Shown piece after piece: positions 2,407 to 56,569 of a DNA stretch of 64,000 nt. The notes beneath the pieces were generated by a model. The model had not been told where the DNA came from and did not search any database. It saw only the letters and a program-made list of their open reading frames with translations. A program made the position numbers and the translations under genes. The stretch is from contig MU053629.1 of NCBI GenBank assembly GCA_013239625.1, positions 34,676 to 98,675 of the forward strand, given 5' to 3'. The stretch comes from Lama guanicoe. Its lineage: Eukaryota. Numbering within the stretch: the stretch's first letter is position 1; each line of letters begins with the position of its first letter.

Positions 2407-2642
2407 CTGGTTATCCCGACATATGCGACTTCCTGCTTGTCCTCATTGTTCACCAGCGAAAGCCCAAGGCTATGCAGAGACAGCGTTACTTCATGACGGG
2501 CTTGCTCCGCTTCCTCCGCCTGCAGTGCTCTGGAGACCAAGGCCACGTCATCAGTGAAAAACAGAACTCTCTGGCGCCCATCTAGAAATGATACCCAGTG
2601 TATCTGGATGTTGGCATCATACGGAAACTGCCCACATTCATC
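2407..2642 (-). CDS. VPS13C: VPS13C exon (42nd in window), 236 nt, phase 0->2
   Basis: cag|GAT...ACCAG|gtacgg; DECGQFPYDANIQIHWVSFLDGRQRVLFFTDDVALVSRALQAEEAEQARHEVTLSLHSLGLSLVNNEDKQEVAYVGIT. Confidence 0.95.
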
Positions 2643-4693: not shown

Positions 4694-4879
4694 NNNNNNN
4701 NNNNNNNNNNNNNNNNNNNNNNNNNNNNNNNNNNNNNNNNNNNNNNNNNNNNNNNNNNNNNNNNNNNNNNNNNNNNNNNNNNNNNNNNNNNNNNNNNNNN
4801 NNNNNNNNNNNNNNNNNNNNNNNNNNNNNNNNNNNNNNNNNNNNNNNNNNNNNNNNNNNNNNNNNNNNNNNNNNNNNNN
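4694..4879. other. Assembly gap (186 N)
   Basis: Run of N directly after an A9 tract. Confidence 1.
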
Positions 4880-6250
4880 GCCCTTCTCATGTCCACCTGG
4901 GCCTGAGCAGAACTCCCTGCTCAGATCAACCCAGCGGACAAGAAATGGACAACTGGTTGGCTTCTAGCTCGGTTTCATCATCTGGCAGGTTACCGGCTGA
5001 CTGAGGGGTGATTATCTACTCTTCTTACTGCCTGGTTCTCTTAACACCAATCAGAAGATAAACTTTTAAAGCCACAATCCCGTGCATACACTAGTATCAG
5101 GTTCTTTCTGACTCTGCCTCATTATGCAGACTCTGACCATCTCCTGCAGGATGCCATTCCCACTTCTCCCCACTCTCCCTCCAGGGCCTGGACACTACCG
5201 TCTGGGAGCTGTGGTTGCTGGGGAGCATTACATGTGAGTGGAACGAAAGTACCGTCAGCACAGACAGACCCCTGGTAGAGCCACTGTATCTCTGAGCCAG
5301 AGGGCTAAGAGTATTGGGGAATTTCAGCTTCTATCTAACACTTAAAAACCCTGAGAGCTTTTCTGCTGTAAAAAGTAAAGCACAAGCAGGCAACAGAGCT
5401 CCATCAAACTGCCATGTGAAAATCACTTCAAGAATCCCGTAACTATCAGTCTGATTTTTCAAAAGTGGGTAAGTCTGTCTCTCTTATGGGTATTTCAGAG
5501 GGAAACAGGAGAGGATAGTTCAGTCACTGTTGGCCAATTACCATTTGAAAGGAGTCAAGAAAGCTCTATTTAACAACTGGCATTATCAGACAATGGAATA
5601 TGACACAGTATGAATTTCTCATGATAGTTTCATGACAGGATATATTCCTACAGAAACCAGATGACCTACCACTCACGGAGGGGCAATGCCTGTACTAGAG
5701 GGAGGCTGGCAGACGGATTCTTAAGCCCTTTCCGAAGTCTAAGACTCTAAGAAATAACATATTTAGTTAATTCAGCTATCTAAACATTGTTCCAATAAAT
5801 ATTTCCTTAAATTTCTTATATGGGGTAATTTGCATACTGTCAGACTCCTTTAATTAACAAAACACATGGCCTTAACAGCGAAATCATGTCTAAAAACCTC
5901 ACAGCCAACAGTGGTATGTACATGAAGTTTTTTTTCACTTAGTCTTAAAATTCCTTCCTTTTAAATAAAAGGAAATAAAGAAGCACTTTACTGGTATTTA
6001 CTTGGGAAAGATGAAGCAGGCCTACTATTTAAATTGTAAATAAATTATTTTAACTGAAAATTATTTTTCTCTTAGGAGAAAATATTGATATGGACTATCT
6101 GCAATCTAAAGCCCAAAAGCAACTTATTTTGAAATTTTACTTCCACTTTTTAGTTCAGTAAGGACGGAGATGACTTTGTGAAGCTAACGTGTCTACTCCC
6201 TTTGCTATGAGGTACCTCATAGCATAATACTCGTTCACATCAAATGATAC

Positions 6251-6377
6251 CTTTAACAGATCATGTTTCCCAGTATTTGCTGCGTAAGTCCATGTAAGTT
6301 TTCTGGTACCAGTAGGATCTGCCCAGGCAAAGAGTCAAACCTGTCTTGGCAGCAGTACCATTTCTTCCTGCGACCCC
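6251..6377 (-). CDS. VPS13C: VPS13C exon (41st), 127 nt, phase 2->0, contains in-frame TGA
   Basis: cag|G GGG TCG...TTAAAG|gtatca; GSQEEMVLLPRQV*LFAWADPTGTRKLTWTYAANTGKHDLLK; stop at 6335-6337. Confidence 0.9.
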
Positions 6378-7098
6378 CTGAAACACAAGCAACAGAGGGA
6401 AGATTAAAATACCCTGGCCTCGAGAATCCTACAGGACCTGTGGCTTACTGAGGAGGGGATTGAAACAAACATTTTATAGAACTGCCTTTGCTAACAAAAC
6501 ACAACTCTGTCTAAAAATAAGTAACCTAAAATGTCCAATAAGCTAATGATTTTGAAGCTTGAGGGACAAGAATACTGCCCTTTCTGAAGGTATACCCTGA
6601 ACTGATCCAGACAAGATCACACTAATGGAATTCATTAAGGTGAAGTGAGTGGTACATCAGAGATCACCCACAGAAAAGGCTGTGAATAGTAAATTTTTTA
6701 GTAGCTGAAGAACTTCACTTGGAGCTTAAATTTAAGACTTTTGATCAAATGCAATGCATAAGAAATATGAGTCTCGGAGAGAAGAAAAATGGGTCCATAC
6801 CATTGTAGCATTCTAGGCTTGCTAGAAAGGGCAAAATTGGGGGCCCCAGCTAAAACCTGCTAAATGCGAATCTGCATTTTAACAAAATCAGTTGTATAGA
6901 TTAAAAACATTTGTTTTCTTAAGTTCTTACTGAAATGCACACTGGCTCTGATCTCTTACAAATGTATGTATGGCATTATATATTGACATCCAACTCCTTC
7001 AAATAATTATCAGTATGTTTTACAGCATGTTTTAATAAAATATTTTAAAGCAAACTTTAAAAATCAAAGACATTTTATTCTAAAACATGAAAACTTAC

Positions 7099-7227
7099 CA
7101 GATCTTCTAAGCTTAATAAAGTGCCATTATCCTGCTGGTTGTAAAAGAATGGCCTGGAGGATCCTTCATAGCCCACCACTCTCACACAAAGTTTGCCCGA
7201 AAATTTCTCAGGCCAAAATGGGAGGTA
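7099..7227 (-). CDS. VPS13C: VPS13C exon (40th), 129 nt, phase 0->0
   Basis: cag|TAC...CTG|gtaagt; YLPFWPEKFSGKLCVRVVGYEGSSRPFFYNQQDNGTLLSLEDL. Confidence 0.95.
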
Positions 7228-7267
7228 CTGAAAATATAGAAGTTAATATCAATCAGTCTTAATACTA

Positions 7268-7374
7268 TGCAAATATATGTATGTAAACGCATGACTGGAT
7301 ATTGTGCCGTACACCAGAAATTGACACATTGTAACTGACTGCAGTTCAGTCAAAACAAAAACAAAAACAAAAAC
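7268..7374 (+). mobile_element. Very short L1 3' end with (CAAAAA)n tail
   Basis: gtgccgtacaccagaaattgacacattgtaactgact motif, A-rich tail, flanking AATACTA at 7261-7267 and 7375-7381. Confidence 0.75.
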
Positions 7375-8858
7375 AATACTAGGGTATAAATGAGACAGTG
7401 GCTAATAAAATTTTCAATTCTAAATCTGATCACGATTCAATTATTACTAAGTTTCTTAAAATAGTCCCTCCACATCCAAGATTTTTGACAATCTAATAAT
7501 TGTTTATGAAACCAAAGAAGAATAGATACATTAGTCTTTACTAACTTATGAAATAATTACAATATGAGAAACAAGTGCTATTAAAATGTCTCAAATATCT
7601 TGAATATTTAAAAATTATTATCTTAATAACATTTTCTTTTATGTGTATCTCATTTTAATTCCTTAATGCACTATGAATTCTTTCACAGAGTATCTCATTC
7701 TAGATAAGCCAGAAAGACAACTGAAGGCAGAGGACATTGCTGTAGTCCTGACACTATCCTCCTACCTGTTTGGCCTTGATCAAATCATACACCTTTTAAA
7801 GCCTTGGTTTTCTTATCTGTAAAACTGAGATTTTAGTTCCTAAAACAGAAGTCCTGTCTGCTAGAGAATACGGGGTAAATTCTATTTATTCTATCTATTC
7901 TATACTACTGCTGTCAAACTCACATCACAGATAAAAAGATAAGGAGCATTTATTTGTTGCCAAGTCTGTGGAGATCATTCCAAGTGCCTTGGGAAGCCCA
8001 CGCCTCTTAGAGCTCTTTGTATTGTAACTGGAATCCCTCCTCTTGAGCTTTCTGCTAAGTATTTTTAAAAATAATTTTAGAATCTTTTTTTTTTGAGATG
8101 TACAGAAGAATGGTTCTATCCTTAAGTCAGATGGTTTGGTTGAAAACTCGGGCAAATTCAAGTGCTAATGCCTGTCTTTGCACCTGTCCTCTCCCCAATT
8201 TTTCCTCATTGTCTTCACCTTACATCTTACTGAGTCTGCAAAGTTTAGTTCAAATGCCAGCTCTACCATGAAACTTTCCCTTTTGATCTAGACCACCACA
8301 ATGATACCAAGCTGCAAAGACTTAACTGACTTTTGAACAGTATGAGATTCAGTTTTCTTCTCTGTAAAGTGAAGGGCCTGAATTCTTGGAAATTTTCAAG
8401 GAAACTTCCAGCTCATCTATTCAGAGATTCCATAACCACCTATAACTTACCATATACTATCTTCTTCTCCATGTACTAATGTGTATGAGTCTTACACCCT
8501 CCAACAAGATTAGAAGCTTCTTAAATACAAAGACATTATCTTGACTATTGAGACAATACATAGTGCATTATCTTTATATACTTTTTACAGTCCATGTCCA
8601 TGTTTATACATACAGGAAGAACTAGAGAATGAGTGTTAACAGTCTAGACTGGTTAGTGGTAAATAATATCAACAATTTCCTTCTTTTTTTAATATATGTT
8701 TACAGTATGAAAGAAAAGTTTTAAAGCTGGCTATTATATTTTAAAACACAAATATGGTAACAAAGTAAGTATGACAAAGAGATATATGTAATTGTTATTT
8801 ACATGTCTGTCTTTATTTATACATTCTAGAAGCCAGTTATATGAAAGGAAAATTTTAC

Positions 8859-9023
8859 CTCTGAAGAAGCAATATAGTTCCACTTATTAGTTGGCATTGA
8901 GCCGTCTGATGCAATTTCACCAACTTCCAGTTCCAATGATGACTTGTTCTCAATTGTATAAAAGGGAGTCAAAGTAACTATTCGTGTAAGATTAAAACTG
9001 CTCATTTTGATGCTAACACCAAC
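8859..9023 (-). CDS. VPS13C: VPS13C exon (39th), 165 nt, phase 0->0
   Basis: VGVSIKMSSFNLTRIVTLTPFYTIENKSSLELEVGEIASDGSMPTNKWNYIASSE; AG/GT flanks. Confidence 0.95.

Positions 9024-9084: not shown

Positions 9085-9116
<32 letters not shown>
9085..9116 (+). repeat. (AC)16 microsatellite
   Basis: Perfect dinucleotide run. Confidence 0.95.
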
Positions 9117-9867: not shown

Positions 9868-10569
9868 CTACACCAGAGAACACAAACCATCACATAAGAA
9901 ATCTAAAACACTACATTCATTTTATTTGATGGGAAGTTGCTAGACCATTAGAAATTTATTGAGTACATGAGATACAGGAAAACAATCAAAGTCGTATTGC
10001 AAATGGGTAACAACCACAGAAACTCTAAGGGCCAATATAATAAAAGCAGAGCTCCGACCTTCCTATTCACCTCTGCAAAGAGAACAGTGAATTCAAAGAC
10101 GTTTACCAATGAGATCCTCTGTTAGTTAAACAGGAATTATAACATAAAATGATATTTTCCAGTGTTAGACTTTTGATAGAGAGCTAACAAATTCTTAAAG
10201 TTTCAGCACATAGAGAATTTGTGCTTTTAACAGTATTCAGCAAACAGCAGATGAAAAGTGTTGTGATAAGCAGAATGGAAGACACAGTTCCTGTCTCCAA
10301 CGAGCTTCCGATTAAACAGAGAGACAGGAAATAAATACTAAAACTTATGAGAGACTCAATGTGATAAGACCCATATAAGAAGTATAAAATGCTATCAAAA
10401 AGTTTACATCTACCTATGGGATTAAATAAGTTTTACAGAAGAGATTTAACTGTGCTCCTGTATTAACCTCCTTGTACCCAACTAGATTCTAAAAAACCTG
10501 AGGCCAACCAGAGGTCAGACACATAAACAGGTAATTACAATACCAAGCATTCAGCAACACTCTCGGACG

Positions 10570-10748
10570 GGGTCCTCAAAGAGTGGTCTCGGGACCAGCA
10601 TCGTTGGCATCACCTGGCAATCTGTGAGAAGTGCAGATTCTCAGACCCTTCCCAGACCTACTGCATCAACTATGGTGGCACAACCCGGCAGTGTGTTTTC
10701 AGAGCCCTCTAGGTGATTCTAATGCACCCTGAAATTTGAGAAGCACTG
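10570..10748. mobile_element. MER5A-like hAT-Charlie DNA transposon relic
   Basis: ctcaaagagtggtc...catcacctgg...tgcagattctcag...cagacctactg...ggtgattct...tttgagaagcactg. Confidence 0.75.
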
Positions 10749-11368
10749 CTCTGAGAGAACATGGATGTGATCTCTAGCCCCATTTTTGCTGGTCAGACAA
10801 TCCTTCACATGTGTCAGGAAAGAGCAGAATGACAGAGGATGAAGAGCAGACAACCAGAGAACATGAGGCACACAGGGAAAACACAGAGAAGGAGGCAGAG
10901 AGCGCAGCTACACAGAGGCCTAGAAGTAAGTACTTGGGAAAGTGTGTGGTTAACCATTCCGAGACAGGAGTCTGAAAGGAAAGAAGGGACCAGAGAACCA
11001 ACGATCAGGCCTTAGGCACTAGGTTTCTCTCTCAAAGGCCTGTCTCTGTGCTTCACACACAGGAAGGCTCAGTTAAACCAAATTCAGCTGCTCTGTCTTT
11101 TGAAATGTTGCTTCATCACTGGTAAACTACATAAAATCAAGCTTTCTCCTTGACACTACTTCAAGGAGAGCAGTAATTCTAGGGGCCCTGGAGGAAAGGG
11201 TAACTCGGCCTCGGGAAGCTACTGTTTTTAGTTCCTGACACCCACTCGATGACACACTCCTTAAAAGTCCTCTTGGACCTAATTCATACCAATGGCACCT
11301 AGCAAACAGGTAAGTATGGCATTAGGTAAATAATAAATAAGTAATTTGTTGCATCGACAAAAACACAC

Positions 11369-18118: not shown

Positions 18119-18482
18119 CTCTAGTGTCATGTCAGCAGCAGCAGCCATCAGGGAAGTCCAATTCTTAATAGTTCCTGAAAACTTAGACTCCGCCAATAAT
18201 AAAGGTACAGTTCGATGCCCAAGGCCACATTCTAAGGTAACTTGAACTGACTTCACAACAACAGCACAATTTTCCTCTATCGATGGAGTTTCAATGTCTC
18301 TGAAATTCTCTGTTATTTCTGTTGCCATGTCAACACCAAGAAACCAAGAGTTATAATCACTAATGGATTTGATGCCCCAGAGATTTTGTTTCCTTAGACA
18401 CATCTTTGGATTCATCTTCTTTTGCCTTTGGAGACATAGCAGCCATTATTGTCATCACAGTATTAAGAATTATGGGTGAAAT
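18119..18482 (-). CDS. VPS13C: VPS13C exon (30th), 364 nt, frameshifted (phase 0->0 requires 3n)
   Basis: ISPIILNTVMTIMAAMSPKAKEDESKDVSKET, then a frame change to NLWGIKSISDYNSWFLGVD...ADMTLE. Confidence 0.9.
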
Positions 18483-18852
18483 CTTCAAAAAAGAAAGCAG
18501 GAAAATTTTTAGAATTCTTTCCCAGATGAGAAGAATTAATACATACTACAAAAATTTTTAAGTAACTAATTAAAATTTTAATTACATTAAATTCATAACT
18601 AAGGAAAACAAAAGAGAAGAACACACAAAATCATGTGTCAAGTCAACTAACCTCATAACAGTGACCTCTGCCCAGGTTATCTAGAATTAAGTAACTAATG
18701 TGTCAACTGTCAAAATCTAAAGTTAATCAATTCAGAGTAAAACAGTGTTACGTGAATAGAAGAATGTAGAAGTGTAATTGAATTTTACATTTTTCACCCA
18801 GCTACATTATCTAAACTAAGTGTGTGATCCTCATCAAGATAACACACACGGT

Positions 18853-24686: not shown

Positions 24687-24730
24687 GCAAAAGTATTCAA
24701 TGTAATTCGCAAAAGTATTCAATGTAATTC
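24687..24730 (+). repeat. Perfect 22-bp tandem duplication GCAAAAGTATTCAATGTAATTC x2
   Basis: Identical units at 24687-24708 and 24709-24730. Confidence 0.95.
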
Positions 24731-25603
24731 GAGTCCACACATCCTCGTGTGTGCTGCAAAGAGCCTGCTACCAACAGAAGGATGGCCTTTATCACCCTTG
24801 CCTAGATAGCGGTGAAGGCTACCCCAGGACATGCAATTTGCAAAAGAGAAAAGCTGGTTGCATGAAAGCACTCTGTCCTCATTTACTCACTTCTTAGAAA
24901 AACAAAGGGCTCAGAAATACCCAGCATACATTCAATGGAATCCAACTTTAGGTAACAACATACTTTTTCTCCAAAAAACATCAAGGACAAAAATATTATG
25001 CATCTCATTATGTGAGAAAGGAATAAAAATATAATTAGGCTATTGAAGTTGCATATTTCTCTATTTCTCACTTGATAGTAAGGTGATATAAATTAATCTT
25101 TCAAAAATGGGTTGATAACATGAAAATTAGGGATTCCATTTCTACTGAAAGTTTTAAAAAAATTTCACAGAATTGTTTTAAAATATATAGACAAAATAAA
25201 TAAGACAAAGAAAAATATTTAACTTTAAGGGTTTTTGAAAAAAGATTCTGCTTACTGGGAACAATTTAGAAAAATATATTACCAATGAACCATACCATGC
25301 GGATTTAATTATTAAAATTCTTGTATTTTCTTAGTTTCCACTTTTAAGACAGGATTTTATTACTAAACTTCCCTTTAATTCAAACTTTAAAGCAACAGAA
25401 TGTGAAACAGCAATACTTCATGATGCACTTCAAACTGAAATATGACCAAAGACCTCTTCTGATAACCCCAAGGAACAGGATCCCAGAAAGGATGATCATG
25501 AGACCCCTTCAGACAATCTCAAGCCCAGCGATCAATGCCTGGCAGCCATGCCAGGTGCAACGCCAGCCTTACATAATGTACAGCAAGTTCAGAGATGACA
25601 AAC

Positions 25604-25774
25604 CTTGATGTTGCTCTCTCAATTCCTTCCCTGAGATCATCAAGGGTGCATGTCTTAAGCTTAAGGTTGACATTCATTGAGCCATCCTTAAACATCTTCC
25701 CTCCAGAGGCCATAAGGTGCAGCCTGAGTTCGCCAAGCTGGAAACTGTCATTATGAAATGAAAGTTTTGGACTC
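25604..25774 (-). CDS. VPS13C: VPS13C exon (26th), 171 nt, frameshifted (phase 0->2 requires 3n+2)
   Basis: cag|GAG TCC AAA A CTT TCA TTT CAT AAT...; the conserved frame reads SFHNDSFQLGELRLHLMAS...EGIERATS. Confidence 0.9.
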
Positions 25775-30541: not shown

Positions 30542-32246
30542 CTAGAAACCAAAAATAGGCTGTTGTTAATTTAAAGTAATAAAAAATGCAAAATATCATA
30601 TTTATGTTTTTATTTATGGATCCTCAAATGAATTAATTGTTCACCTAACAACAAAAACAACAAAAAGCAAGTTGCGACCATAAATACCAGGAGAGAAGTA
30701 TTTCATCTTACATAGTATTAGACATTCCTCCTATGAGTAAACATGCTTCTGCCTCCATTTGTATCCAAGACCCGGCTTCCGGTACTTCATCCCTCTTCCT
30801 GCCTTAACTGTCATTCTCCAGTTCCTCCTGTTCCTGGACCTGTGCCTCTCTCCCCTCTCCTGAGCTCCTCATCTCCATTCTGCCTTTCTCTCTTCTCATC
30901 CAGTACTAGCTTCCTCCTGCACATTTACTCCCCTCCAAACTCAATACAGGAAGAGTGCTGTTCAGTTTTCAGCCTCTACCAAGAAGGAAAAAGATGCTCT
31001 CCTGCAGTGTAGCGCCTATTCTCAGCACATACGCATTTGTACGTAGATAAATCACTTGTTTAACTTATGAAGATAATGCCTCTTAGAACAATAACAAGTG
31101 CATCTACAAAGAATTTTTTAAAATCAAAACACAGAAGAGGAAATGAGTATCTTCCTTATCTTCAACCTGTATAAAAGGGGGTATGTGGCAAAAAGAAAAA
31201 GGAAAAAAAAAGCAAGAGCTTTTGAGTCACGCATATCTGTATCAACTCTACAACTTTCAAGCTGTGTTGTTGGCCAAGTTTCTTAAATTCTAAAACAGGA
31301 ATGTCATCTCCCTCATAGGTGGTTGCAGAACAACATGAAGCTGCTAGAACAAACGAGGATGCTACTGCCTACTAAGATCCATTAAACTTTTTAACTCTTT
31401 CATCTTTTGTACATTTCCCCTACACACACAATCGTCCAAAAGGCCTGTTTCTAGTATTTAAACACAAATTCACACAAGGCACATTCACAGCACCTTCTCT
31501 TCTGAACACGACAATACCCAATGTCCCCCCAGTTAAGCACCTATTCCGAAGGAGTCCCTGATCCCCAGTCTAAATGAAAATGGGGAGATATTTTAGCATG
31601 AGATAATGACCAGGGATTTCTTGTTTGCTCCAAGCCCCAGTCTTTAGATAATGGATGTCACTTTAACTCCCTAGAACTTCCTTGTCTGTTCATTCCCACT
31701 TGTGATACCAACCAAGGCAACAGTTGCCTGAAAGACAAATTACTTCGCCACCTCCTAATATTTGAAAAGGGTCAAGTACTAGTTGTGGGATATAATCTTA
31801 GCAAGGGAGAATTTGAGAGAACAGTCCCATACTCTGGAGTAGAGAAGCCTCTATCAATACCCTAAGCAGATGCTCTTCTTCATATAACACACCTACTCAC
31901 AGTACATACAGGGACCTTTCATGCCTACAACAAACTTCACTTTTAACATCTTCTCTAGTTGAACTTTGCTCGTTTGACCCTTCCTGTTCTATTTAGAACT
32001 AACTGAAATAATCACAGATATCAAATACCTCTAAACTACTACTTATTTGTCTTTCAAACATTCCATTTAGTTACTCCCTCCCTTTTCCTATCTTCTACTG
32101 TTTGGCTTCAACAGTTTCACACACAGGCACACAAGAATCCTAAGATTCCTATACTTCCATGACCATCTTTGACCAGTATCATCTCTTCCTGTGAGCTACA
32201 CATGACCTGCTAACTACAGTAATAAATAAAAATAATTGCTGTTTAT

Positions 32247-33725
32247 GTGGTATTGGCACAAAAGCAGACACGTGGATCAATGGAACAGAACAGAGAGCTC
32301 AAAAATAAACCCACAGACCTACGGGCAATTAACTTTTGACAAAGGAGGCAAGAACAGACAATGGAGAAAAGACAGTCTCTTTAGCAACTAGTGTTGGGAA
32401 AGCCAGACAGTCACAAGTAAATCAATGAAGTTGTTAGCACCCTCCCTCATACCATACACAAAAATACACTCAAAATGGCTTAAAGACTTAAATATAAGAC
32501 ATGACAGCATAAAACTCCTAGAAAGGAACATAGGCAAAACATTCTCTGACATAAACCATAGCAATGTTCTCTTAGCTCAGTCTCCCGAGTCAATAGAAAT
32601 AAAAGTAAAAGTAAATAAATAAGACCTAATCACACTTACAAGCTTTTGACAGCAAAGGAAACCATAAATGAAACGAAAAGACAATCTGTGCGCTGGGAGA
32701 AATATATATACAAACAATGCAAAAGACAAAGGCTTAATTTCCAAAATATACAAACAGCTCATATAGCTCAATAACAAAAAAAAAAAACAAACCAAACAAC
32801 CCAGTCAAAAATATGGACAGAAGACCTAAACAGACATTTCTCCAAAGAAGACATACAGATGGCCAACAGGCACATGAAAAGATGCTCAACATTGTTAATT
32901 ATTAGAGAAACACAAATCAAAACTGCAATAAGGTATCACCTCACACTAACTAGTCAGAATGGCCATCCTTAAAAAGTCTACAAATAATAAATGCTGGAGA
33001 GGGTGTGGAGAAAAGAAAATCCTCCTACACTGTTGATGGGAATGTAAATTGGTGTAGCCACTATGGAAAACAGTATGGAAGTTCCTTAAAAATCTAAAAA
33101 CAGAGTTACCTTATGAACCAGCAATCCCACTCCTGGGCATATATCCGAAAAAGATAAAAACTCTAATCCAAAAAGATACAAGCACCTCGATGTTCAAAGC
33201 AACAATATTTACAATAGTCAAGACACGGAAGCAACCTAAATGTCCCTCAAAAGATGAAGGGATAAAGAAGATATGGTATATATGCAATGGAATATTACTC
33301 AGCCATAAAAAATGAAATAATGCTATATGCAACAACATAGATGGACCTAGAGATTATAATACTAAGAGAAGTCAGACAGAGAAAGATAAATATTATATGA
33401 TGTCACTTGTATGTGGAATCTGAAAAAAATGATCCAAATGAATTTATTTACAAAACAGAAACAAACACATAGACACAGAAAACAAACTTATAGCTACCAA
33501 AGGGGAAGACGAGGAGGGATAAATTAGGAATTTGGGATTAGCAGATACAGTCTACTATATATAAAACAGATAAACAACAAGGCTCTACTGTAATGGAAAA
33601 AATCTGAAAAAGAATATATATATATGTATATGTATGTGTGTGTATTTACATAAAACTGAATCACTTGGTCGCACACCAGAAACTAACACAATATTGTAAA
33701 TCAAATATACTTCAAATAAAAAAAA
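32247..33725 (+). mobile_element. L1 5'-truncated insertion (~1.5 kb): ORF2 C-terminus, 3'UTR and A-tail
   Basis: ORF 32425 (PYTKIHSKWLKDLNIR...IKLLE) resembles L1 ORF2. Degenerate TSD aaaaataattgctgtttat (~32228-32246) versus aaaaagtactgctgtttat (~33721-33739). Confidence 0.9.
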
Positions 33726-34130
33726 GTACTGCTGTTTATATGCTGACCAAATAAACATATTCACTTTTCTATTTAAAAGAGTACTTCTATACATTAAAAA
33801 TACTAAGGTGCTTTGAGAATGTGACATCCAAGTATCACCGTATAGTGTCTCATAATTTAACTGCCTTAAAACTTTAATAGAATTGTCCAAAATTACTAAT
33901 AATATTTTCAGTTGACCCCAATAGGTTTTAACCCCAGATTTCTTGCTGGCTTTATCAAACATCTGACTAATATGAAATAAAGAAAAGTGTGGGACCTAGG
34001 ATGACCTCATTTTTAGTTAACAGAGCATTCCCTTTAAATGTATCATCACTTCTGATGTGCTCTAGAACTACACTGTATCAATGACAAAAGCCTATCTAGC
34101 AACTTTCATACATTTTATACATATACTTAC

Positions 34131-34278
34131 CTGCATAGGTTTTAGTTTTCCTTTTATCTCCATCCCTGGAATTTGCACATACCATGTTGCTGCTAAATTT
34201 CGCTGTATGGACAAAAGCATGTTGACTGGTTTTAAAATTTCAATGTCATGTTGTGGTAAGCCAGACTGCAAAATCGTT
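34131..34278 (-). CDS. VPS13C: VPS13C exon (23rd; repeat B exon 10), 148 nt, phase 2->0
   Basis: TILQSGLPQHDIEILKPVNMLLSIQRNLAATWYVQIPGMEIKGKLKPMQ. Confidence 0.95.
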
Positions 34279-35244
34279 CTGGAAGATAAATAAGAATTTG
34301 TATTTCTGAAATTTACATTTTAAAATGAAGACTATCATACTGTGTAACAGTTTCCACATAGCATTCTCCTAAACACTAAAGGCTGCAATCAGAGTTCTTT
34401 CAGAACACGCCTCTTTTCGCAAATCAATCTAAATCAGAATAAATCAAGTTTACATGCAGAACTATGTAAAACAAAGCCTGTATAATGCTGATTTCAAAGA
34501 CACAAATTTCATGAAGTATGACTATTGCACTATTTACTATCTTTCACAAGGACAATTTAATACTAGCAACCAGTCTGTCATACAAATGCTACATCCTTCT
34601 AAAACTGGAGGAGACAGAAAGTGATAGTCTACCCAGCCCTTAGTTTTATGTTAATAGCACTTCTCCAAACTCAAAGGGAAAAACTCACCAAACCTAAAAG
34701 TTAAACAAGCATACTGTAATAGTCATTTCTAGCTTGCCCGTCAACAAATATTTGAACAACCAAAAAAGTTACTCTTGTCCTTCAATAGAACCAACACTTT
34801 TCCATTTGGATTCGATAATCATTTAGATACCTTACTGAGAATTCCTAAATGTGACAAGGTTTGGAAATCAGAAATAAACCTTAAATTTTATTACATTTTA
34901 AGAAGTCTTCTCCTATGCACAGAAAAGAAAATAGCTATGTGCAGAGTAAAAATATGAACAAAGAAAAATAAATCTAAACTAAGTATTGAGTAAACTATAA
35001 TCTTATAGTAGGAAATTTTACAGTAGGGAATTTTTATAGAATAAAAAAAAGCTACAAATTTAGTAAGACAAAAATGCAGATTCTATGAGGTACACCGCTA
35101 CCAAGCACTGACCAAAAACCAACAGCCAAGGTTTCATAATCAGAAAAAATAAAGAATAAGACCCATAAAACCCTGGAGGGGTTTTACCCTTGGCAAAGAT
35201 TCTATTCCTAGTAAGTAACAGATGACTGTATTATATTTTTATAC

Positions 35245-35549
35245 CTGGACAGCTTCAGCTGAGTGAGCTGGATGCTCATTGTGTCAATGACTGGGGGAAG
35301 AGGACAGTGTTCCACAGCAACCACGTTAAATTTGTTTTCAACTCTGATTAAACCCAGATCTGCTATAACAGCATTAGGTGATACAGAAGACTGAGGAATG
35401 ATGATAACTGGTGCTTTCAAATTGACATCCATCAGAAGGCGGAAACTCTTTTCAGCCAAGTCTTTCATGCTGGAAGCAGCTCTTTCTGCAGCTTGGACTG
35501 TAGCTGTGCTCAAAGCCTCTTTGGCAGTTTGAAAATTGTTAAGGAAGTT
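35245..35549 (-). CDS. VPS13C: VPS13C exon (22nd; repeat B exon 9), 305 nt, phase 0->2
   Basis: NFLNNFQTAKEALSTATVQAAERAA...LKAPVIIIPQSS...ADLGLIRVENKF...LTQLKLS. Confidence 0.95.
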
Positions 35550-36738
35550 CTGTTGAAAGAGACTGATATTTAGAGCTCCCCTCAAAGTGGGATTTATTTT
35601 TAAATGGAAGGACTTTAAAAAAGACAAACTAAATAAAAGAGGTGATATAAAAGAGATGTTATTTATGATTGGTTACATAGAGAGTAAAGTCTAGAAAGAT
35701 ACAGTTTGAGATAATTAACAAGTGGAAGAGAGTCCTTTAACTTTCATTTTATGTATTTCAGAATTTTTTGGACACATTTTGGTAATAATTCTTTCTTACA
35801 TTTCCCTTTTACTCATGAATGTTGGTCATTTTAATTCAAATTTAATAAAGAGATGGCAGAGAGTGCTCTACTTCTCCCAAAGTAGTTTCAATTCTGTACC
35901 TCTAGGTCATAGGAATAAAGTTTACACTTAGAAACTGAGGTTTTACCAACTTATTTCTGAAGATTCTTTTTTTAAATGTACCCCAAGGAGCAAAGATGCT
36001 TAAGTGTTTATAATCTTGTAATCATTAATCAGAGTCAAAACTTCTTTATTTAGGGTAAGATGCCTTTCATCTCAATTTCAACTAAAAATGGATTTTTCCT
36101 AATGAAGAAAAAAAAACTGGAAGCAATATTCTTGATATACATCCATTAATAACACAAAGTGACTTAAACTAACCCCCTTCTAAATAAATTACCTTCCAGA
36201 AAAATAAAACATGATGGTTTAGGTAGAAATCTATGACTTGTAAGCTTTGAATAACGGCCTCACTAAGAGGCACAGACAAATTAAACTCTTTGGTCCAGGA
36301 CACTTAAATGGAAATAAACAACTGAAAGAAAAGAATTTTATGACTTTGTTGATCAAAATTATAATCAAAACCTGTAAGTTTCAATATAAGTCCTTCAAAT
36401 GCCTGATAAGCTCCTTAAAAGATTCTTTTAGCTAAATACTTTTTAAGGGTATCTCATAAAACAAACAGCACTGAAAAGCCCTAACTTAAAACATCAGAAG
36501 GTACTTTCAAAATACGTAACAATGGGAATGTTAAGGAATGATCATGTATAGGTTCAAAACAATGATAGACATTCATTTAGTTATCCATCATGTAAGGAAC
36601 TTCCCTAATGGTAAAATTCTGCTCAGTATTTGGGAGTTTACCCCTATTAGTAAAGATTTTGACTATCGAGGTTCAGATGTATAGGCAAAGATACTGAGGC
36701 CTCAATGGGAAATAAATAGATGTAAAGAATAAACTTAC

Positions 36739-36906
36739 CAAAAGAGACATGAAGAATTTATGAACATAAACAACTTGAATACAGCCCACTTTGAGACTAA
36801 GTTTGCCATCTACTTTAGACATATCAGCATAGGCCTTTCCTTCTGTAGCATCTGGATAAAGAGTCATTTGGAATCTAAAGACTTCATCTTCCAAAATAGA
36901 GACAGC
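36739..36906 (-). CDS. VPS13C: VPS13C exon (21st; repeat B exon 8), 168 nt, phase 0->0
   Basis: AVSILEDEVFRFQMTLYPDATEGKAYADMSKVDGKLSLKVGCIQVVYVHKFFMSLL. Confidence 0.95.
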
Positions 36907-37306
36907 CTAAAAGTATTAAATTAACTGGTTATTACAACAAAAAAGCTGTATCAGTATAGTATAAATAAGATTCCTTATTATAGAATTCTTGATGAAGAAG
37001 CATCATTTAAATTCAACCTTCAACGAATGATTAGTTAAAAACATTTAACTTGACAATAACTTTTTCCTAAATCTATAAAAAACATTTTATCAATGGAGGT
37101 ATCAATCACTTAACTGGTCAGAGATAGCTTTTACAAATCACCTAGTCTATACACAATGTGGAAACAGACAGTGACCATACTTCTGCCCAGTCCCTAACAA
37201 AATGCCTGACACGTGACAGACAATATAGAATGAACAAATGAATAAACGCATCTCAAGCCCAAAGAACGAAAATAAATTCCAATATAGAAACATATTCTTT
37301 AATTAC

Positions 37307-37410
37307 CTTTTTGTGAATGGACAGCAAATCAACGTTCGTAACTACGATATCCTTAAGTCTGGCAAATACGTCGGTCTGCTTTGGCCTCACAGAAACAGAA
37401 GCATCCATTC
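37307..37410 (-). CDS. VPS13C: VPS13C exon (20th; repeat B exon 7), 104 nt, phase 1->0
   Basis: MDASVSVRPKQTDVFARLKDIVVTNVDLLSIHKK. Confidence 0.95.
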
Positions 37411-38044
37411 CTGTGGGAAAAATGACACTTGTCACCTACTCCAAGTGAACTGATTTACTGGTATTTAAGTTCAATACCATACTACCAAGATATGGAATGA
37501 ATAAAAATTACTCACTATTACACATAGTAAAGGTATTACCTTTTACATATGAGATACCTAAGAAAGATGATACTATCTTTAAGTGCTAAGGGCATCTCAT
37601 AACTAAAACGTGTAGAAATTTTAAAACAAAAGAAATCAAATTTCAAAGAAAATTAATCACAGGTCTCCAAACATAAAAATCCTGTGCACTGGTAAGCTCA
37701 GAGCTGGTCATTTAGGAAGACATACAACATTTACTAAATAACCATCTCACAAACATTATATTATAAAAACTATTACTCTAAAAACTAAGCATAAATAAAT
37801 ATAGTTTGACGAGTTAAGTATGATTCTTTCTACAATAAACTGTGCCTAAGACATAATGTTTTAAGATTTCTCTCCAAAAAAATGTCTGTCATTCTTATAA
37901 GCTCTAAAGGCATGGTTTCTAAAACCACACCTCAGTAAAGAGAGAATGCCTATAGGTTAGCCCCAATAACGAGCCCAAATCACTACCACACTACTCATAA
38001 AACAGATTAATATTTGTTAAATGGAACTGACTGTCTCACCTCTT

Positions 38045-38260
38045 ATTAACTTCTTATTATGTAAGCACCAGGCACTTTTCTAAATATATGTAAGTCTGTA
38101 AACTTAATCCTCACAACAATCCCATGAATAATTATTATAACTAACTCCATTTTACAGAAGAGGGAACTCAGGCACGGAAACGTTAATTAATTTGCTCAAG
38201 GTCAGCCAGTAAGTGTTAGAACCATAATTTGAACCTTGGCAGGCTGGCTCCAGGATCTAC
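38045..38260 (-). mobile_element. MIR SINE
   Basis: taatcctcacaacaatcccatga...ccattttacagaagagggaactcaggcac...ttgctcaaggtca...tttgaacc. Confidence 0.75.
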
Positions 38261-38697
38261 AGTATAATCTGCACTCATCCCTGTATCAGGCTGATGATGA
38301 GTAAAGCTTAAAAACTTTCCTCTAGAAAAATTCTTTCCCTGAATTCTATATATGCACAAGAGACAAGGGGAAAAAAGCAGAACTCAGTGAGATGTTACGA
38401 TATTCATTTCTCAGTTTGAAGTTACATTATTCTGAAAACACAAACAGGACACAAGAGATTAAGCCTCAGACTTATTCTGAAAATTTTTAAAAACATAAGG
38501 AATGTCTCACATCAGTCATGAATCATAACACATTTACTTCTAACATTTCATAGCACATCTTTGAAAAGTTTGCAGGAGTCCTCAATATACATAAACCCAA
38601 AGATGACTCAAGAGAAATCCACCATGCAACAAGCTCATTCTTCCTGAAGGTCTATGTAGAGAAACAGAAATACCTACACCAAGGAATAGTTACTTAC

Positions 38698-38814
38698 CAT
38701 GTATTCGAATATCTGCAATGTTACACTTCTGATCACAGACAAAGATATTAAATGCATTTAATTCAGCTATGATCTTTATATCAAACACATCGTCTTGAGA
38801 AGTACTGCTGGATA
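38698..38814 (-). CDS. VPS13C: VPS13C exon (19th; repeat B exon 6), 117 nt, phase 1->1
   Basis: SSSTSQDDVFDIKIIAELNAFNIFVCDQKCNIADIRIH. Confidence 0.95.
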
Positions 38815-40598
38815 CTGAAAAATAACAGAATTCTTGTGATTAACAAAGTGCACAAATGATATAACACATAAAATAATCTCAAATTCACTAAAATAAAAGT
38901 ACATTATGAACTATGAAGAACCAAAAAGATCTCCATTAAGAATACGTATAATTAATATGATTTTTAATCAACTTTCAAATGTTAATCAGACAAAAACTAC
39001 TATGTTCTCGTCCAAATGAAAAATAAAGGCAACTTTTAATAGCACTGTGTAAATACAATTTTGCTAGATGGAAACTTACAATTTTTCTTCTAGGAAAAAA
39101 AAAAACCCTCTACATTAGAATTCTAAAATTCCATTACAGCCACATTTTGATTTTTAACTCCTTTCATAACATATATTAGATCAAAGAAAAATATTTCATG
39201 AAAAACTGAAATAGTGACAGTTAATAAAATCTGTATTGTTAACTATGACATTTACAATACGTATTAACTACAGAGCCAATTTCTCTAGATTGCATTTTTT
39301 TCTCCATCCTAAAATAAATTCTGTAAGAAATGAACATAAAGGGCTAAAATTAAGGAAAAAAACAAAAAAATTGTTTTATAATGTATGTCTGTGTCTGCTA
39401 CATATGTACAAGAATCACAATCAAATAGATTCCCTTAATCTATTTTAGTCCAGGTCCTGATTGATAAATATAAGATATAATTTCCCAGAGATTTGTCTTA
39501 GCTGAGGGAAACAGACTTTCCCTATAAAACTGTAACAGCATGGGGACAGGAGTCCTTAATTACCAGATGATAAAAGGGTTTTTTTTTAGTATATATTTAA
39601 AATAACATAATCAAACCATAAAAAGCAGTCATACAGCATAACTGGAAGACTGTTTCTTTGGACTAATGTTTTTGGTAGTTTATTGTGAGCTTAAGCATTG
39701 CTTTTTAATTTATTCAACTGTGTGTGTGTATGTATATGTTATTAAGATATTTCCATGGATATTAATGTAACAAGTACATTAAAGACAAAGAAGGTAAAAC
39801 TCTCTCACTCCAGTTTATAGCAAAAATAATGTTCTGCTCTCTGGTAAAAACAAAACAAAACAAAACAAAACTCATCCTTGTATCAGATTTAATATTACTA
39901 ACAGTTTTACACTCTAAAGATGCCAGTAATACAGATAATGCAAATAGGTAATGTTCTGAAAATTAAATTACCAGATGTTAGATATTCACACCTTATGATA
40001 TGAAAGAAAAATAATTAAAATAATATTTGGCTTTAAAACAGGCATATGCTCACTCTGGCTACCTCACATCTAATATTTCAAGATACAAGTCATGGCATGT
40101 GCCCATATTTCTATGTGATTTAAATACAGGTTCACTTAGAAACCAAAGTGAGTCTGTCTCTTTGATGAGATTATTCCTTTTGTGTCTTGCCAAGCTTAAA
40201 ACTGCTGACCATCAGGTAGGTCTAACTGACTGACTGAAATGGGCCCCTGTGACCATGCATGATTCTGTTAATATTTTAATTTTGTCCTTTCTCACTTTCA
40301 CTGGAATGAAGCCTATAGAGACATCAATGCAAAGTATATGCAACTTTACTTTATGTAGAAGCTAGTCAGTGATATCAAATATAAATACATGATTAATATT
40401 AAACATTTATTTAAACTCCCTCACTAAATTATCCTATTATACCATAGGGATAAAATCTGCTTTCTTTTGAAAACCTAATCTGTCAGAGCAGCTGTAACAT
40501 TAAGGTCCTAAATAGTTATCTTGGCTTGAAAATACAAGTTATTATATGAATATTAAATTCAGATAGAAAGTATTAGACCAGGACTCAAAAGTTAATAC

Positions 40599-40755
40599 CA
40601 GTTTTGGCAATGATACTTCTGGACTCCCCGACAAGTGGTTTCAGCTCCAGTTCCTTCTTAGAAGGTTCAGAGGATGGAACAGCAGACGACAGAAAATCCA
40701 TGAAGGACAGTAAAGCTTCCAAATGAAGAACTAAGTCTAAGGATGAAAATGAAAC
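40599..40755 (-). CDS. VPS13C: VPS13C exon (18th; repeat B exon 5), 157 nt, phase 0->1
   Basis: VSFSSLDLVLHLEALLSFMDFLSSAVPSSEPSKKELELKPLVGESRSIIAKT; G|gtatta. Confidence 0.95.
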
Positions 40756-41427
40756 CTAAGATAATGAACAATTAGAAAGGCAGATTTCAGATACGGTAAT
40801 TTCTGTTAAACTTCAACATACACAGGCTGCACGAGAATAGTTGAATTAAGGGCCTTTTTTATTTAAGAAAAAAAACCTACTATTACTTATTATAACTTAC
40901 CAGACAATAAAAACCAACACTGCCCCCTCCCACACCCGACCATCGTTCTAACCTCAACAGAACCTGACGGGCTTTAAGGTAAAAATACAGGAAGTATTAT
41001 CAGTCACCTTACACATGGTTCCAAGACAGGCCATATAGACTCAAATGGACTGTGAAGTGATGTCTGTACTGAGCCATACTTTTACCTTATCCCTAATTTT
41101 ACTCTAATCCTAAAGCCAGCTCACAATTCAAATGTTTAATGCTTCCAGCAACACTATGCCAAACAACCATAGTGAACAAAATTCCCTTAAAAAGTATATT
41201 ACTTATGTACTCAACAAGGAATCATTAATTCATATCTGGGAAATAACTAGTCTTTTGTAATAATTTTACTTCAACTATATATCCATTTCTTTTATCTATA
41301 AGATTAGATCTATTACTACCCTTATTCTAATTTTAGAACTCACAATCTCACAACTGAAGATGGCTTTGAAGCCAGACTCAATCACTAATATATAACCTAG
41401 CCTTACAGTGAATTAGAAGAGATTTAC

Positions 41428-41487
41428 CTTCAGTCTTTGCTTCGTATTGTCATGCACAGTTTTAAATTCTGGTCCATCACTGTCTGC
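41428..41487 (-). CDS. VPS13C: VPS13C exon (17th; repeat B exon 4), 60 nt, phase 0->0
   Basis: ADSDGPEFKTVHDNTKQRLK. Confidence 0.93.
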
Positions 41488-41969
41488 CTACAAATAATGG
41501 AAGATTAAACCAAATTTACACATTGAAAAAAACAGATTTATATTCTTTACTTTTCAAAGTATGCTATGAAAACACTATAAACGTATTTCTCATAGGCGAA
41601 GAAAAGCATGCCAAAAACCTGGCCACCAAAGCTTTTCTCCTATTCTACAGAAGCAAAAACAAACTCCTTATCCTACTTGGGAGGAAATGTTAAAGGTAGG
41701 GGAAAATGTTAGCGTATCTAGATTATAACAGATTTTGCTTCAAATTACAATGGAACTTTATACACTTCCACTAATTCAAAAACATTGGGTTAACTCAGAA
41801 GGTTAGTGAAATTATCCAGGATTGTCAGATGCTTCCATAATTCACTATAATCTACCAATTTTAGAATGAAAAATTTTAGGGGGGAGATTTGAACTTCTAT
41901 TAAATAAGGGGGAATCACATAGCTTTATATATTCAAATATTAAAGAATACCAGAAATGAAACTAGGTAC

Positions 41970-42049
41970 CTTTGTCAGTAACATTTTCAGAAGGGTTTCA
42001 TCTGTTACATTAGAAGAGTTAATAATGTGGAGAGGTCCTCCTTTAGAGT
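41970..42049 (-). CDS. VPS13C: VPS13C exon (16th; repeat B exon 3), 80 nt, phase 1->0
   Basis: SKGGPLHIINSSNVTDETLLKMLLTK. Confidence 0.93.
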
Positions 42050-42998
42050 CTAGAAGAGAAAAAGAGAAGGTAGATCCATTAAGTCTTTTAAACATTTCAA
42101 ATGTATTTAAAAATAGATTGGCCAGTGACACGGATATGTTTGTCAAAACTCAAAGATGTACACTAAAAAGGGTGAATTTCACTGTATATGAATCATCTCT
42201 CAATAAAACTCGCTTTGAAACAAAAATGAAAGAAATTCCATAAAAACAAAAAACCCAGCAACGGCCATTTACAACTGCTATAATCATATACTACTGGTAT
42301 TATTTACTTGCACAAATCAGAATATATTAAAGAACAAAGGTATAAAATACACTGAAGTAGGCATTATTCTCAATAAAAGTTTGCTTTACTTAAAGGTAAC
42401 CTATAGAATTCCTGCAAACTTCAAACACCCACAGCAACTTTCAAAGTTGGCTGGATGCAATTCAGAAAGTACATCTGAAAGGTCGAAGAGACGACAAGTC
42501 CATGTTAAATTTTTCCTCTATAAATTTCTGTATTTAATTTTTTTAAGTATATATCAATATAATTAAACACAAATAAAAAACATTGATGTAATTTTAAAAA
42601 CAAACAAAAACAGTTACTAGTAAATTAACTCACCTTTTCAAAAAGGGTCCACACCTGGGTATTGTACTCGGGTTGTGATTTCCTAAGGTGTCAGTTCTCA
42701 CAGCATAGTTATAATGAAATGTTGCCTTTTACAAGTCCTGAAGTATTATGTATTGATCTTGAAGACAAATGCTTCATTTCTCCTTTAGATATATACTACT
42801 TTGTGCTAAATATTTAGATATATTCTCATTTTATGACAATTACATAGATAATAAATTTTTAGTACCAAATTCCTTTATATTAATTTAAACTAGCTAAAAA
42901 ATTATGGTGACACTAATAAACGTGCTAAATGTTGATTAAAAGGTAGCAACCATCTGCTATTACATGCACAATTTACACAGACTCGACTTCACACTTAC

Positions 42999-43155
42999 CT
43001 GAGAACTCAAAGCATCGCATACTAATTTTTTTCAGATAAGCTTCAGCAGTCAGGTCGTAGGCTTTAACTCTAGCTTCCATTCCAAGCTGTAGGACACTTA
43101 GTTCATGTAAAGGCCTTCCTTTCTTTTCTGCTTTTTCCATCAAAGTAATCACAAC
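42999..43155 (-). CDS. VPS13C: VPS13C exon (15th; repeat B exon 2), 157 nt, phase 0->1
   Basis: VVITLMEKAEKKGRPLHELSVLQLGMEARVKAYDLTAEAYLKKISMRCFEFS. Confidence 0.95.
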
Positions 43156-47975: not shown

Positions 47976-48123
47976 ATTCATGGATTCAAGATGCCCTTTA
48001 ATTTCCACAACAGGCACCTTGTGGTACCAAGATGCGGCCAGATTCCGATTTACAGAAAACTCCAAGTTAATTGGGTGCAACAGTTGAATATCAGGATGGG
48101 AGGTGCCTGACTGGATCACCGTC
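47976..48123 (-). CDS. VPS13C: VPS13C exon (12th; repeat A exon 10), 148 nt, phase 2->0
   Basis: TVIQSGTSHPDIQLLHPINLEFSVNRNLAASWYHKVPVVEIKGHLESMN. Confidence 0.95.
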
Positions 48124-48310
48124 CTAATAAAAAATGTAATTAATACATATGCATGAACACAGGGGGTAAATGCAATACATCATTAAAAAAACACAAAGTC
48201 AAAAGTTGCTGCTATCAACACTGATTTGAAACAGTGCTGGTTCAGTGTTTTCTAAACTTGTACTATAATTAATTTAATCTGTAATACACTAGCACAAACA
48301 GATTAAAACA

Positions 48311-48556
48311 CAGGTGGCCCTTGAAAAATGCAGAGGGGTTAGGGGCAACGACCCTCCCTGCAGTCGTAAAACTTGAAGTTTGCCCTTCATATCCGCGGTT
48401 TCTCTGTATATGAGTTTCCTCTGTATATGCAGCTCCTCTGTATTCATGGTTCAAAACAATCACGGGTTGTATAATACTGTATTATTTGGCACTGAAAAAT
48501 ATCTGCGTGTAAGCAGAATCATGCAGTTTAAACCCATGTTGTTCAAGGGTCAACTG
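48311..48556 (-). mobile_element. Tigger2-like non-autonomous DNA transposon
   Basis: TIRs caggtggcccttgaaaaa...ttgttcaagggtcaactg followed by TA; opposite orientation to the copy at 20822. Confidence 0.8.
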
Positions 48557-48899
48557 TACATTTGTTTACAGGGTCAACTGTACAATCAGCCTTTAAGAAA
48601 GCGTTTTTCTTTAAACAGAAGATAGGTGACAAACTAAATAAATTTTAAAAAGAAATTCATATTATTGAAGATGGGGGAAATCATCAATACAGTTGTTCAA
48701 GAACTGCATGTGCACTATAGAGACTAATGAAAAAAATGGCAAGATGAAAAGTAAGCAATTTCTAAGTTTATAAAGGTCTTCACCAGGATTATTTCCTGGA
48801 CTTGCTTTATAATCATTCCTTTTTTATTGAGGATAATTAAATCTCCCTGGATGGGGTAGAAAATGATTTTTAAATGAATTGTGTACACATTTTCAAGTG

Positions 48900-49800
48900 T
48901 CCTCTGGCGTGAGCCCTAGAGATACATCATTACTTACACAGTATTCCTGCCAAAAATGTGTAAGCTCAGTTAAATCATGAGGAATCACTCAGACAAAAAC
49001 TCAACTGAGAGTCATTCCATGAAACAAGTGGACTGTACCCTTCAAAACTGTAATCATCATGAAAGAAAAGAGACGCTGAAGAACAATTCCAGAATAAATG
49101 TCTAGCCGTATAGAAATCCCCTCCCTGGTACAGGACTCAAATAAATGCCACATGTTATCCTGGATGAAGGGAAAAATTCTTAGAACAACCAGTAAAATCT
49201 GAACATTAAAGGCATATTAGATAATGGATTCTATCAATTTTAAATTTCCAGAATTTGATAACGGCATTGTGGTTATGTAAGAGGATTAATGTCCTAGTTC
49301 TTAGGAGACACATGCTAAACCATTTAGGGGCAAAGGGTTAAGATGTCTATTCTCAAATGGTTTAGCAAAAATGTTTTAACTTCCAATTATAAATCTTGGG
49401 GATGTAATGTACAAGATGCTGACTACAGTTAACAATACTGTATTGTATATTTGAAAGTTGCTAAGAGAGTAGATTTTAAAAGCTCTCACAACAAGAAAAA
49501 TATTTTCTGTGAATGTGTGTGGTGATGGATGTTAACTAGACTTACTATAGTTGACCATTTTGCAATATATACAAACATCAAATCATTATGTTTTATATCT
49601 GAAACTAACAAAATACGTGAATTATATCAATAAAAATAAAATTTAAAAATTTTAAGTATTTTAAGTGATAATACGTATATACACAGAGTTCAAGCAGAAA
49701 TAAATAACTGGTGACTAGGTGAAGAATTATAGGGGCACTCAGTATTATTTTACTATTTTTGCAATTTGTCTGTAGGCTTGAGATTTTTCAAAATAAAAAG
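48900..49800 (+). mobile_element. Old L1M 3' region with a nested L1MA-type 3' end (~49390-49640)
   Basis: ggggatgtaatgtacaagatgctgactacagttaacaatactgtattgtatatttgaaagttgctaagagagtagat. Confidence 0.7.
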
Positions 49801-49920
49801 TTGATCTGAAAACACTCTTCTGTGCAATAGGAAGTATGTTGAGTATGAATTTAAATGGTCATTAAAGTTCATAGAAAATATTAAACAATACTTAAATCCA
49901 TAATTATTGAAAGAGCATAC

Positions 49921-50225
49921 CTAGAGAGCTTAAGCTTTGTTAGCTGCACATCCATTTTATCAATTACTGGAGGGTGTGAGTAGTCTTCACCAGGTACCAG
50001 ACTGAACTGATTCTGAACTCTGATTAAGCCAAGATCTACCACCACTGCATTGGTGGACATGGAAGACTGTGGGATGACTATAACCGGTGCTTTCAAATCA
50101 ATATTGACAGAGACACGAAAGCTCCGCTGGGCGAGATCTTTCACACTTGTGGCAGCCTTTTCTGCAGCCTGGGCAGTGGCAGCACTCAGAGCCTCTTTGG
50201 CTGTCCGGAAATTGTTCAGAAAGTT
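49921..50225 (-). CDS. VPS13C: VPS13C exon (11th; repeat A exon 9), 305 nt, phase 0->2
   Basis: NFLNNFRTAKEALSAATAQAAEKAA...LKAPVIVIPQSS...VDLGLIRVQNQF...LTKLKLS. Confidence 0.95.
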
Positions 50226-50722
50226 CTGTGGACACAAAGTACAAAAGGAGAAATTCTAACAGGACGATAAGCACATCATTAATAACACCATCTTCTTTTT
50301 ATTTATGTGCTAATTTTTTTCCAATAAATAACTTTCAGTTGAGTCCTTTTTTTCTAGAGTTAGGAAGGAATTACTGATTATCCATCCATATTTATGAGCT
50401 CCCTGACCAGGAGTAATTATAATTATAGCTATATGGCTAAGGAACAGAGGAAAAAAGAACATTTTCAATAGTTTCTGTAGTTGAGAATTTGGATTCACTA
50501 TGTTCTAGCAGAAATAATTCCAGTTCTAGACAATGTTAGACAAAAATCATTAAATGATTCAGATTCCAGTCATTAAAGAAAGGTTTTGACCTCTACATTA
50601 ATACATAAATACCATCAATCATCAAATCAATACACACCCTAAAATCCAAAGTTTTAAGATTTGCAATTATAATTATCAGACTTATTTAAGTATTTCTAAG
50701 TCAAAAAAATAGTGATTTTTAC

Positions 50723-56480: not shown

Positions 56481-56569
56481 TATTATTATATAAGTGAAAA
56501 GTGTTTCAGACACTCAAAAGTGATACAAAATCTCTGATTGTTTATTATTTCTATTTTTATGGCTATTAC

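Follow-up and report, generated by a model that had tools for sequence, protein, structure and literature searches.

Loss of VPS13C in people causes Parkinson's disease with an early onset. The orthologues of this gene encode a groove with an internal duplication of about 500 residues, as described in the available part of PMC7613979. In the available text of 10.1101/2025.11.10.687702, the VAB domain is described as six beta-sandwich repeats that are inserted between groove repeats 12 and 13 and are necessary and sufficient for Rab7 binding; VAB and the ATG2_C helices bring VPS13C to damaged lysosomes, and an FFAT motif and a calmodulin site lie towards the N-terminus. Single Vps13c knockout mice are viable and live almost normally, lethality being confined to the Vps13a/c double knockout; as far as the available text of PMC12463328 goes, life in the knockout mouse and in humans with biallelic loss is compatible with loss of VPS13C alone, VPS13A being partly redundant. 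In contrast to both, a loss in a camelid would have arisen naturally and may have become fixed in a lineage.

Lineage-specific gene losses in mammals have reportedly been described in cetaceans and in the vampire bat. Losses of this type, as found in TOGA-type screens and in the available part of GISMO (PMC13754592), combine several lesions of the reading frame with an intact sister lineage, as does the gene described here, and with relaxed selection, which in this gene would apply to the 3′ half. In GISMO, VPS13C has a median of 0.006 and falls in decile 1 across 462 mammals (PMC13754592). Since this median is not zero, some species, unnamed in the available part of that source, were already scored as losses. 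The Ensembl identifier behind this row, which we take to be that of VPS13C, co-occurs with the gene name in at least four papers. Unlike the usual unitary pseudogenes, VPS13C ranks in the decile most constrained against loss and counts among the genes of recessive neurodegeneration, and its decay at this locus is apparently confined to the 3′ half. No report of VPS13C loss in a camelid was found among the papers listed for the openly available full-text literature, judged by titles, and VPS13 was absent from the available supplements of PMC7331169 and PMC6598621. The disruption of this rarely lost disease gene in a camelid is apparently unreported, and public TOGA tables may already hold the case.

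VPS13C gene structure in the window

The window, that is, the whole stretch of 64,000 nucleotides analysed, carries VPS13C on its minus strand. Exon A matched residues 2907–2948 of PDB chain 9yqp_B with E=1e-19, compared with E=0.002 for VPS13A. As listed in Table 1, 42 exons of VPS13C were modelled, which span 2407–61512 and cover Camelus residues 761–3069 of about 3709; no neighbouring gene was seen within the window. Five paired exons occur twice and cross-match, and the VPS13C-type internal duplication is therefore present. The exons are collinear with those of VPS13C of human and Camelus (PARK23; structure 9yqp; available text of 10.1101/2025.11.10.687702), which have the same internal duplication. 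Compared with Camelus VPS13C, the gene has two frameshifts, one missing exon and one stop, and there is no open frame past codon ~1919 (Camelus numbering).

Residues were identical to those of Camelus ferus VPS13C at 2,167 of 2,214 aligned positions (97.9%), and identity to the six other artiodactyl proteins compared was 88.7–90.7%. The sequence differs from all three Camelus species and, by elimination, most likely comes from a South American camelid. Residues 801, 1883, 2491 and 2707 of the C. ferus protein P0171 are not shared with the Bactrian camel and the dromedary, one of them at an otherwise invariant Gly, and are possibly record errors or private variants.

In the gene model, 38 of the 41 exon junctions were phase-compatible, and the three misfits correspond to the missing exon and to the two frameshifts. 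The 25 upstream exons are joined by 24 junctions, every one of them in phase. The splice donor was GT in 41 of 42 cases. The sole GC donor, at 52925–52926 (minus strand) after 52927, has an imperfect consensus and represents either a GC–AG intron of ancestral origin or a lesion of the 5′ half, which would be the fifth; in a comparison of its ancestry, four donkey models used another acceptor there.

The introns showed some further features. A fragment at 31800–33750, which we take to be LINE-1-like from its ORF2-like translations, is located in the intron that precedes the 30541 exon, within the stretch joining the intact half to the decayed one. A tandem duplication of exactly 22 bp was located at 24687–24731 and an (AC)16 microsatellite at 9085–9116.

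Table 1. Features of VPS13C in the window (residues and codons in Camelus numbering).
Feature	Position	Strand	Description
5′ part of VPS13C in window	28160–61512	-	25 exons, residues ~761–1911, all in phase, no stop, 4 polarised lineage-specific changes
Duplicated exon runs	34131–43155 and 47976–56723	-	117, 104, 168, 305 and 148 nt; VPS13C internal duplication
First frameshifted exon	25604–25774	-	171 nt, one extra A at 25768–25765 (A-run), codon ~1913
Frameshifted exon	18119–18482	-	364 nt, 2-nt deletion near 18387–18386, codon 2190
Exon A	7099–7227	-	129 nt, phase 0 to 0, intact, residues 2862–2904, GT donor
Fused intron	6378–7098	-	721 bp, exon B gone (134 nt, phase 0 to 2, residues 2905–2949, VAB domain end)
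Exon C	6251–6377	-	127 nt, phase 2 to 0, splice sites intact, premature stop and Glu-to-Lys, both at conserved columns
Premature stop	6335–6337	-	in-frame TGA at Arg2963, exon C
Scaffold gap	4694–4879		186 N, in intron past exon C (1.4 kb on); sole gap in window
Exon D	2407–2642	-	236 nt, phase 0 start, intact

The missing exon and three further lesions

A preliminary description of this DNA had stated that exon A has a GT donor and ends in phase 0 while exon C starts in phase 2, that about 44 residues are missing between them, that the N-free interval of 721 bp holds no match to these residues, and that the only gap of the window lies beyond exon C. All of this agreed with our results. A total of 122 long homologues were examined, of which 109 were parsed by anchor motifs and 13 non-matching ones were left out. 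Both intervening exons were present in 109 of the 109 parsable homologues and encoded exactly 87 residues in 105 of them, and therefore the missing exon B measures 134 nt, equal to 44 codons and 2 nt. A profile of exon B built from 54 distinct peptides gave nothing in the six frames of the 64 kb, with a best score of -6.7 bits. The control profile for exon C recovered exon C from the same 64 kb with 89.7 bits and E=6e-30, and no second copy of exon C was found in the window. The longest exact remnant of the camel exon B peptide was 3 residues in the interval and 4 residues in the window, compared with 3–4 and 4–7 residues, respectively, in 30 shuffles.

C. ferus P0171 and 11 of 12 further Camelus proteins carried both exons and the Arg at the position of the stop in exon C, the twelfth being a 307-residue fragment ending upstream. 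The lesions thus postdate the split from Camelus. Pfam placed the VAB domain at 2438–2972 in the camel protein, so that exons B and C hold the last part of VAB and the return to the groove.

When metagenomes were scanned with the camel peptide of both exons, 151 pattern matches but no confirmed locus were obtained; the scan yielded no orthologous intron for locating the breakpoints. A search of 50%-representative sequences with exon A gave 27 matches with a best single-stretch identity of 90%; the four examined were exon-plus-intron ORFs without splice information. The beaver model P0015 was considered as a parallel loss. Part of the block is absent from it, but the model is fragmentary and is missing many exons.

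Either a genomic deletion or a mis-assembly had been proposed for the absence of exon B. A deletion is likelier, given the lack of a gap or repeat in the interval, the three further lesions and the word shares of 96–98% described below, and a mis-assembly is an improbable source of the absence. An assembly collapse would be expected to leave a gap or long flanking repeats, and neither an N nor a long repeat, flanking or internal, was found at 6378–7098. The proposal was incomplete in that the loss of exon B is accompanied by three further lesions in a decaying 3′ half of the gene.

Sequences at 6800–6890 and 10560–10750 resemble a DNA transposon, which we take to be of the MER5 type. Of these, the one inside the 721-bp intron seems truncated and may be close to a breakpoint of the deletion. 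A perfect 22-bp palindrome, the longest in the window, is located at 6203–6224, 27 bases beyond the exon C donor, and is possibly a small inverted duplication. The only other palindrome of at least 18 bp in the window is AT-only and lies at 18567–18584.

The preliminary description overlooked the TGA in exon C and the two frameshifted exons upstream. The TGA column is occupied by Arg in 59 of 60 distinct mammalian peptides, and the stop would most simply have arisen by a CpG transition. When the frame was left uncorrected, the first stop was reached at 25753–25751, six codons past the first frameshift. The four reading-frame lesions all lie at or after codon ~1913 and are spread over 19 kb, and the 25 upstream exons are intact. 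As in unitary pseudogenes, which are recognised by at least two reading-frame lesions in different exons while the sister lineage and outgroups keep the gene intact, the gene carries four such lesions here, and exons B and C are both present in the three Camelus species and in every one of the 109 parsable homologues.

A collapsed intron together with base errors in the assembly, or a haplotype private to the sequenced animal, would also give rise to such a gene. One frameshift lies in an A-run, a scaffold gap is nearby, and VPS13C loss is very rare in mammals going by the GISMO median and decile (available part of PMC13754592). Public sequence runs were consulted for word shares. In 14 DNA-type runs from 4 studies, 96–98% of 422 sampled words from 5000–9000 were present; an error rate of 0.5% would leave 86%, and an error-rich consensus in 5000–9000 is thus excluded. 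This search covered 5000–9000, with the frameshift sites at 18387 and 25768–25765 lying outside, and only 0.8% of the words overlap the stop, and as many the junction, so that both could sit among the 2–4% missing and the shares cannot vouch for single sites. Seven of the 14 runs (2 studies, 5 samples and 4 organism labels) came from studies without a sample flagged as a possible source. Six runs marked as RNA, or guessed to be RNA, had word shares of 0.06–0.35. An exact look-up of 10 window ORFs, both lesion-diagnostic and control, returned 0 of 10, the controls being absent as well. However, four independent errors of three kinds over 19 kb would be needed, in addition to the skewed missense excess described below, and the interval has no long repeat. 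Errors in the assembly or a private haplotype are accordingly judged unlikely.

Splicing could in principle bypass the lesions and yield an internally shortened protein, as there is an in-frame escape for each of them. Use of an acceptor at 25737 would remove 12 residues, skipping of the frameshifted 364-nt exon (phase 0 to 0) would remove 122 residues, and skipping of exon C would remove 87 residues including those of exon B, the direct A-to-D splice being in frame. On a scoring matrix for which no more than about 40 sites were available, the normal acceptor at 25774 scores 0.2 bits, one of the lowest values of the 42, and 1.2 bits were obtained for the cryptic in-frame acceptor at 25737. The deletion and the stop share one in-frame unit of 261 nt, and exon C has 2 changes in 42 codons. 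However, exon C (6.1/6.7 bits) and the 364-nt exon (4.9/9.7 bits) keep ordinary splice sites on the same matrix, so that three efficient rescues would be needed at once. An A-to-C splice would hit the stop, and the missense excess spans the whole 3′ half. Rescue by splicing is thus very unlikely. The in-frame AG at 25737 (minus strand), 37 nt into the first frameshifted exon, is left by a lineage-specific Arg-to-Gln change; Gln at this cryptic site is also found in 2 of 21 outgroups, which keep the upstream residues.

Distribution of amino-acid changes along the gene

Amino-acid changes were polarised against seven other artiodactyl proteins and counted at the protein level only. The window lineage had 19 changes and the camel lineage 22, and 5 were ambiguous. 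The total of the window lineage is not raised compared with camel, indicating that the loss is young. In counts that are small and in a pattern spotted post hoc, 4 of the window-lineage changes lay before and 15 after codon 1913; the split was 14/8 in C. ferus (Fisher p=0.011) and 12/6 for the other two camels (Fisher p=0.008). The background downstream share was 42% (391 of 921 changes in 17 lineages), giving a binomial p=0.001 for 15/19. With private changes only, 12 of 16 were downstream (p=0.009). A boundary-free KS test gave p=0.009 against the background and 0.05 against a uniform distribution, with the maximum at residue 1921. When the five ambiguous sites were counted against the pattern, 16 of 23 changes were still downstream (p=0.008 against the background and 0.04 against uniform). 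Sixteen control lineages subsampled to 19 changes reached the skew in at most 2.8% of draws.

Equal decay upstream would give at least 12 changes, and 4–7 were observed (P=0.007–0.09). Seven of 12 downstream changes were at conserved columns, which is between the selected (45%) and neutral (65%) expectations. Mean splice-site strength showed no difference between the two halves (7.4/8.0 and 8.2/7.3 bits). The excess of ~12 missense changes corresponds to ~18 substitutions in 3,341 nt (0.5%) and to 0.6 expected stops, which fits the one stop seen.

The asymmetry would be accounted for if the 3′ half is dead and a truncated VPS13C of ~1,920 residues is still made and selected, for example through intronic polyadenylation. 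The retained half would comprise the ER-anchoring FFAT region, the calmodulin site and the first part of the groove, and would be without VAB, ATG2_C and PH. The position of all four lesions, the 15/19 downstream changes, the boundary-free maximum at 1921, the persistence of the skew with ambiguous sites counted against it, the low number of upstream changes and the rarity of the skew in the draws from control lineages all argue for such a product. However, the pattern rests on the small, post hoc counts given above, and polyadenylation-like hexamers, common in the AT-rich introns before the frameshift, do not discriminate. Furthermore, none of the listed Camelus isoforms ends near codon ~1913, and the GC donor after 52927 could be a lesion within the supposedly retained half. 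A truncated but selected product is therefore proposed only tentatively.

The same asymmetry would follow directly if the decayed 3′ half belonged to a dead partial duplicate that was mis-joined or collapsed onto a live 5′ half, with an intact 3′ half, or live copies of exons B and C, located elsewhere, perhaps beyond the gap that follows exon C at a distance of 1.4 kb. However, the DNA is continuous from 4880 to 64000 without a gap, the 24 junctions among the 25 upstream exons are in phase, and exon C has no second copy in the window. Live exons hidden in the gap ranked low, as its 186 nt as sized are fewer than the 261 nt of exons B and C, to which an intron would have to be added; even if both exons were hidden there, the upstream frameshifts would stay unrepaired. 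No Vicugna or Lama protein that could represent an intact copy was found among the best 120 of 1,073 matches or among the 15 members listed out of the 31 named in the camel cluster, a weak argument, as these listings would miss such entries with a probability of 0.53 if one were hidden and of 0.03 if there were five. A dead duplicate is therefore doubtful, although it deserves slightly more weight than errors in the assembly.

Probable young loss of full-length VPS13C

We consider it likely that full-length VPS13C has undergone a real and young inactivation, at ~0.5% divergence, in the South American camelid lineage, as a gene loss that would still be under way, and the full-length protein is probably no longer produced from the locus. 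The +1 frameshift at codon ~1913 may have come first and released all downstream sequence from selection, after which the -2 frameshift, the exon B deletion and the CpG stop would have gathered neutrally over ~0.5% divergence. The deletion of exon B would thus be a later neutral hit. With normal splicing, the stop six codons past the first frameshift, far upstream of the last junction, would make the mRNA a target of nonsense-mediated decay. A stop so far upstream normally triggers nonsense-mediated decay and results in a null. Any product would presumably be without the two parts by which VPS13C is targeted to lysosomes, namely the VAB domain, which binds Rab7, and the membrane-binding C-terminus. 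Survival without VPS13C is plausible, since VPS13A is partly redundant.

Within this inactivation, a null of the whole gene has a little less than an even chance. The 5′ half shows no decay, as it has no lesion and 4 changes, or at most 7 if ambiguous sites are included, a pattern not expected from a simple null of the whole gene (p=0.008–0.04 against uniform decay). A null through nonsense-mediated decay should relax the 5′ half too, and this was not seen in the data, which leads to the sub-case of a retained product of ~1,920 residues.

The mammalian indel rate is about one per ten substitutions, and two frameshifts fit the ~18 substitutions estimated above. At a mammalian rate of 1–2 per 10^9 sites per year, ~0.5% divergence corresponds to roughly 3–5 million years. 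The split of Lama and Vicugna is placed at 2–3 million years in the available part of PMC7331169. At these general rates, the inactivation would date roughly from near or before that split. A link to camelid glucose handling was also considered and was dropped.

It is conceivable, if doubtful, that South American camelids are a fixed natural half-knockout of a Parkinson's disease gene, in which the lysosome-targeting C-terminal half is dead and the N-terminal ~1,920 residues are expressed and selected. As an equally tentative part of this proposal, the retained N-terminal product may be a short lipid bridge that is anchored at the ER and whose acceptor end is different or unregulated. Should the decay be limited to the second half, the locus would be a natural dissection of the protein, in which the N-terminal half alone of a bridge-like lipid transfer protein has a function that can be selected. 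If the loss is natural and fixed, accessible domestic animals, with camels as the intact sister control, would be available for testing how VPS13C loss is tolerated, and both compensation by VPS13A and the repair of damaged lysosomes without VPS13C would become testable.
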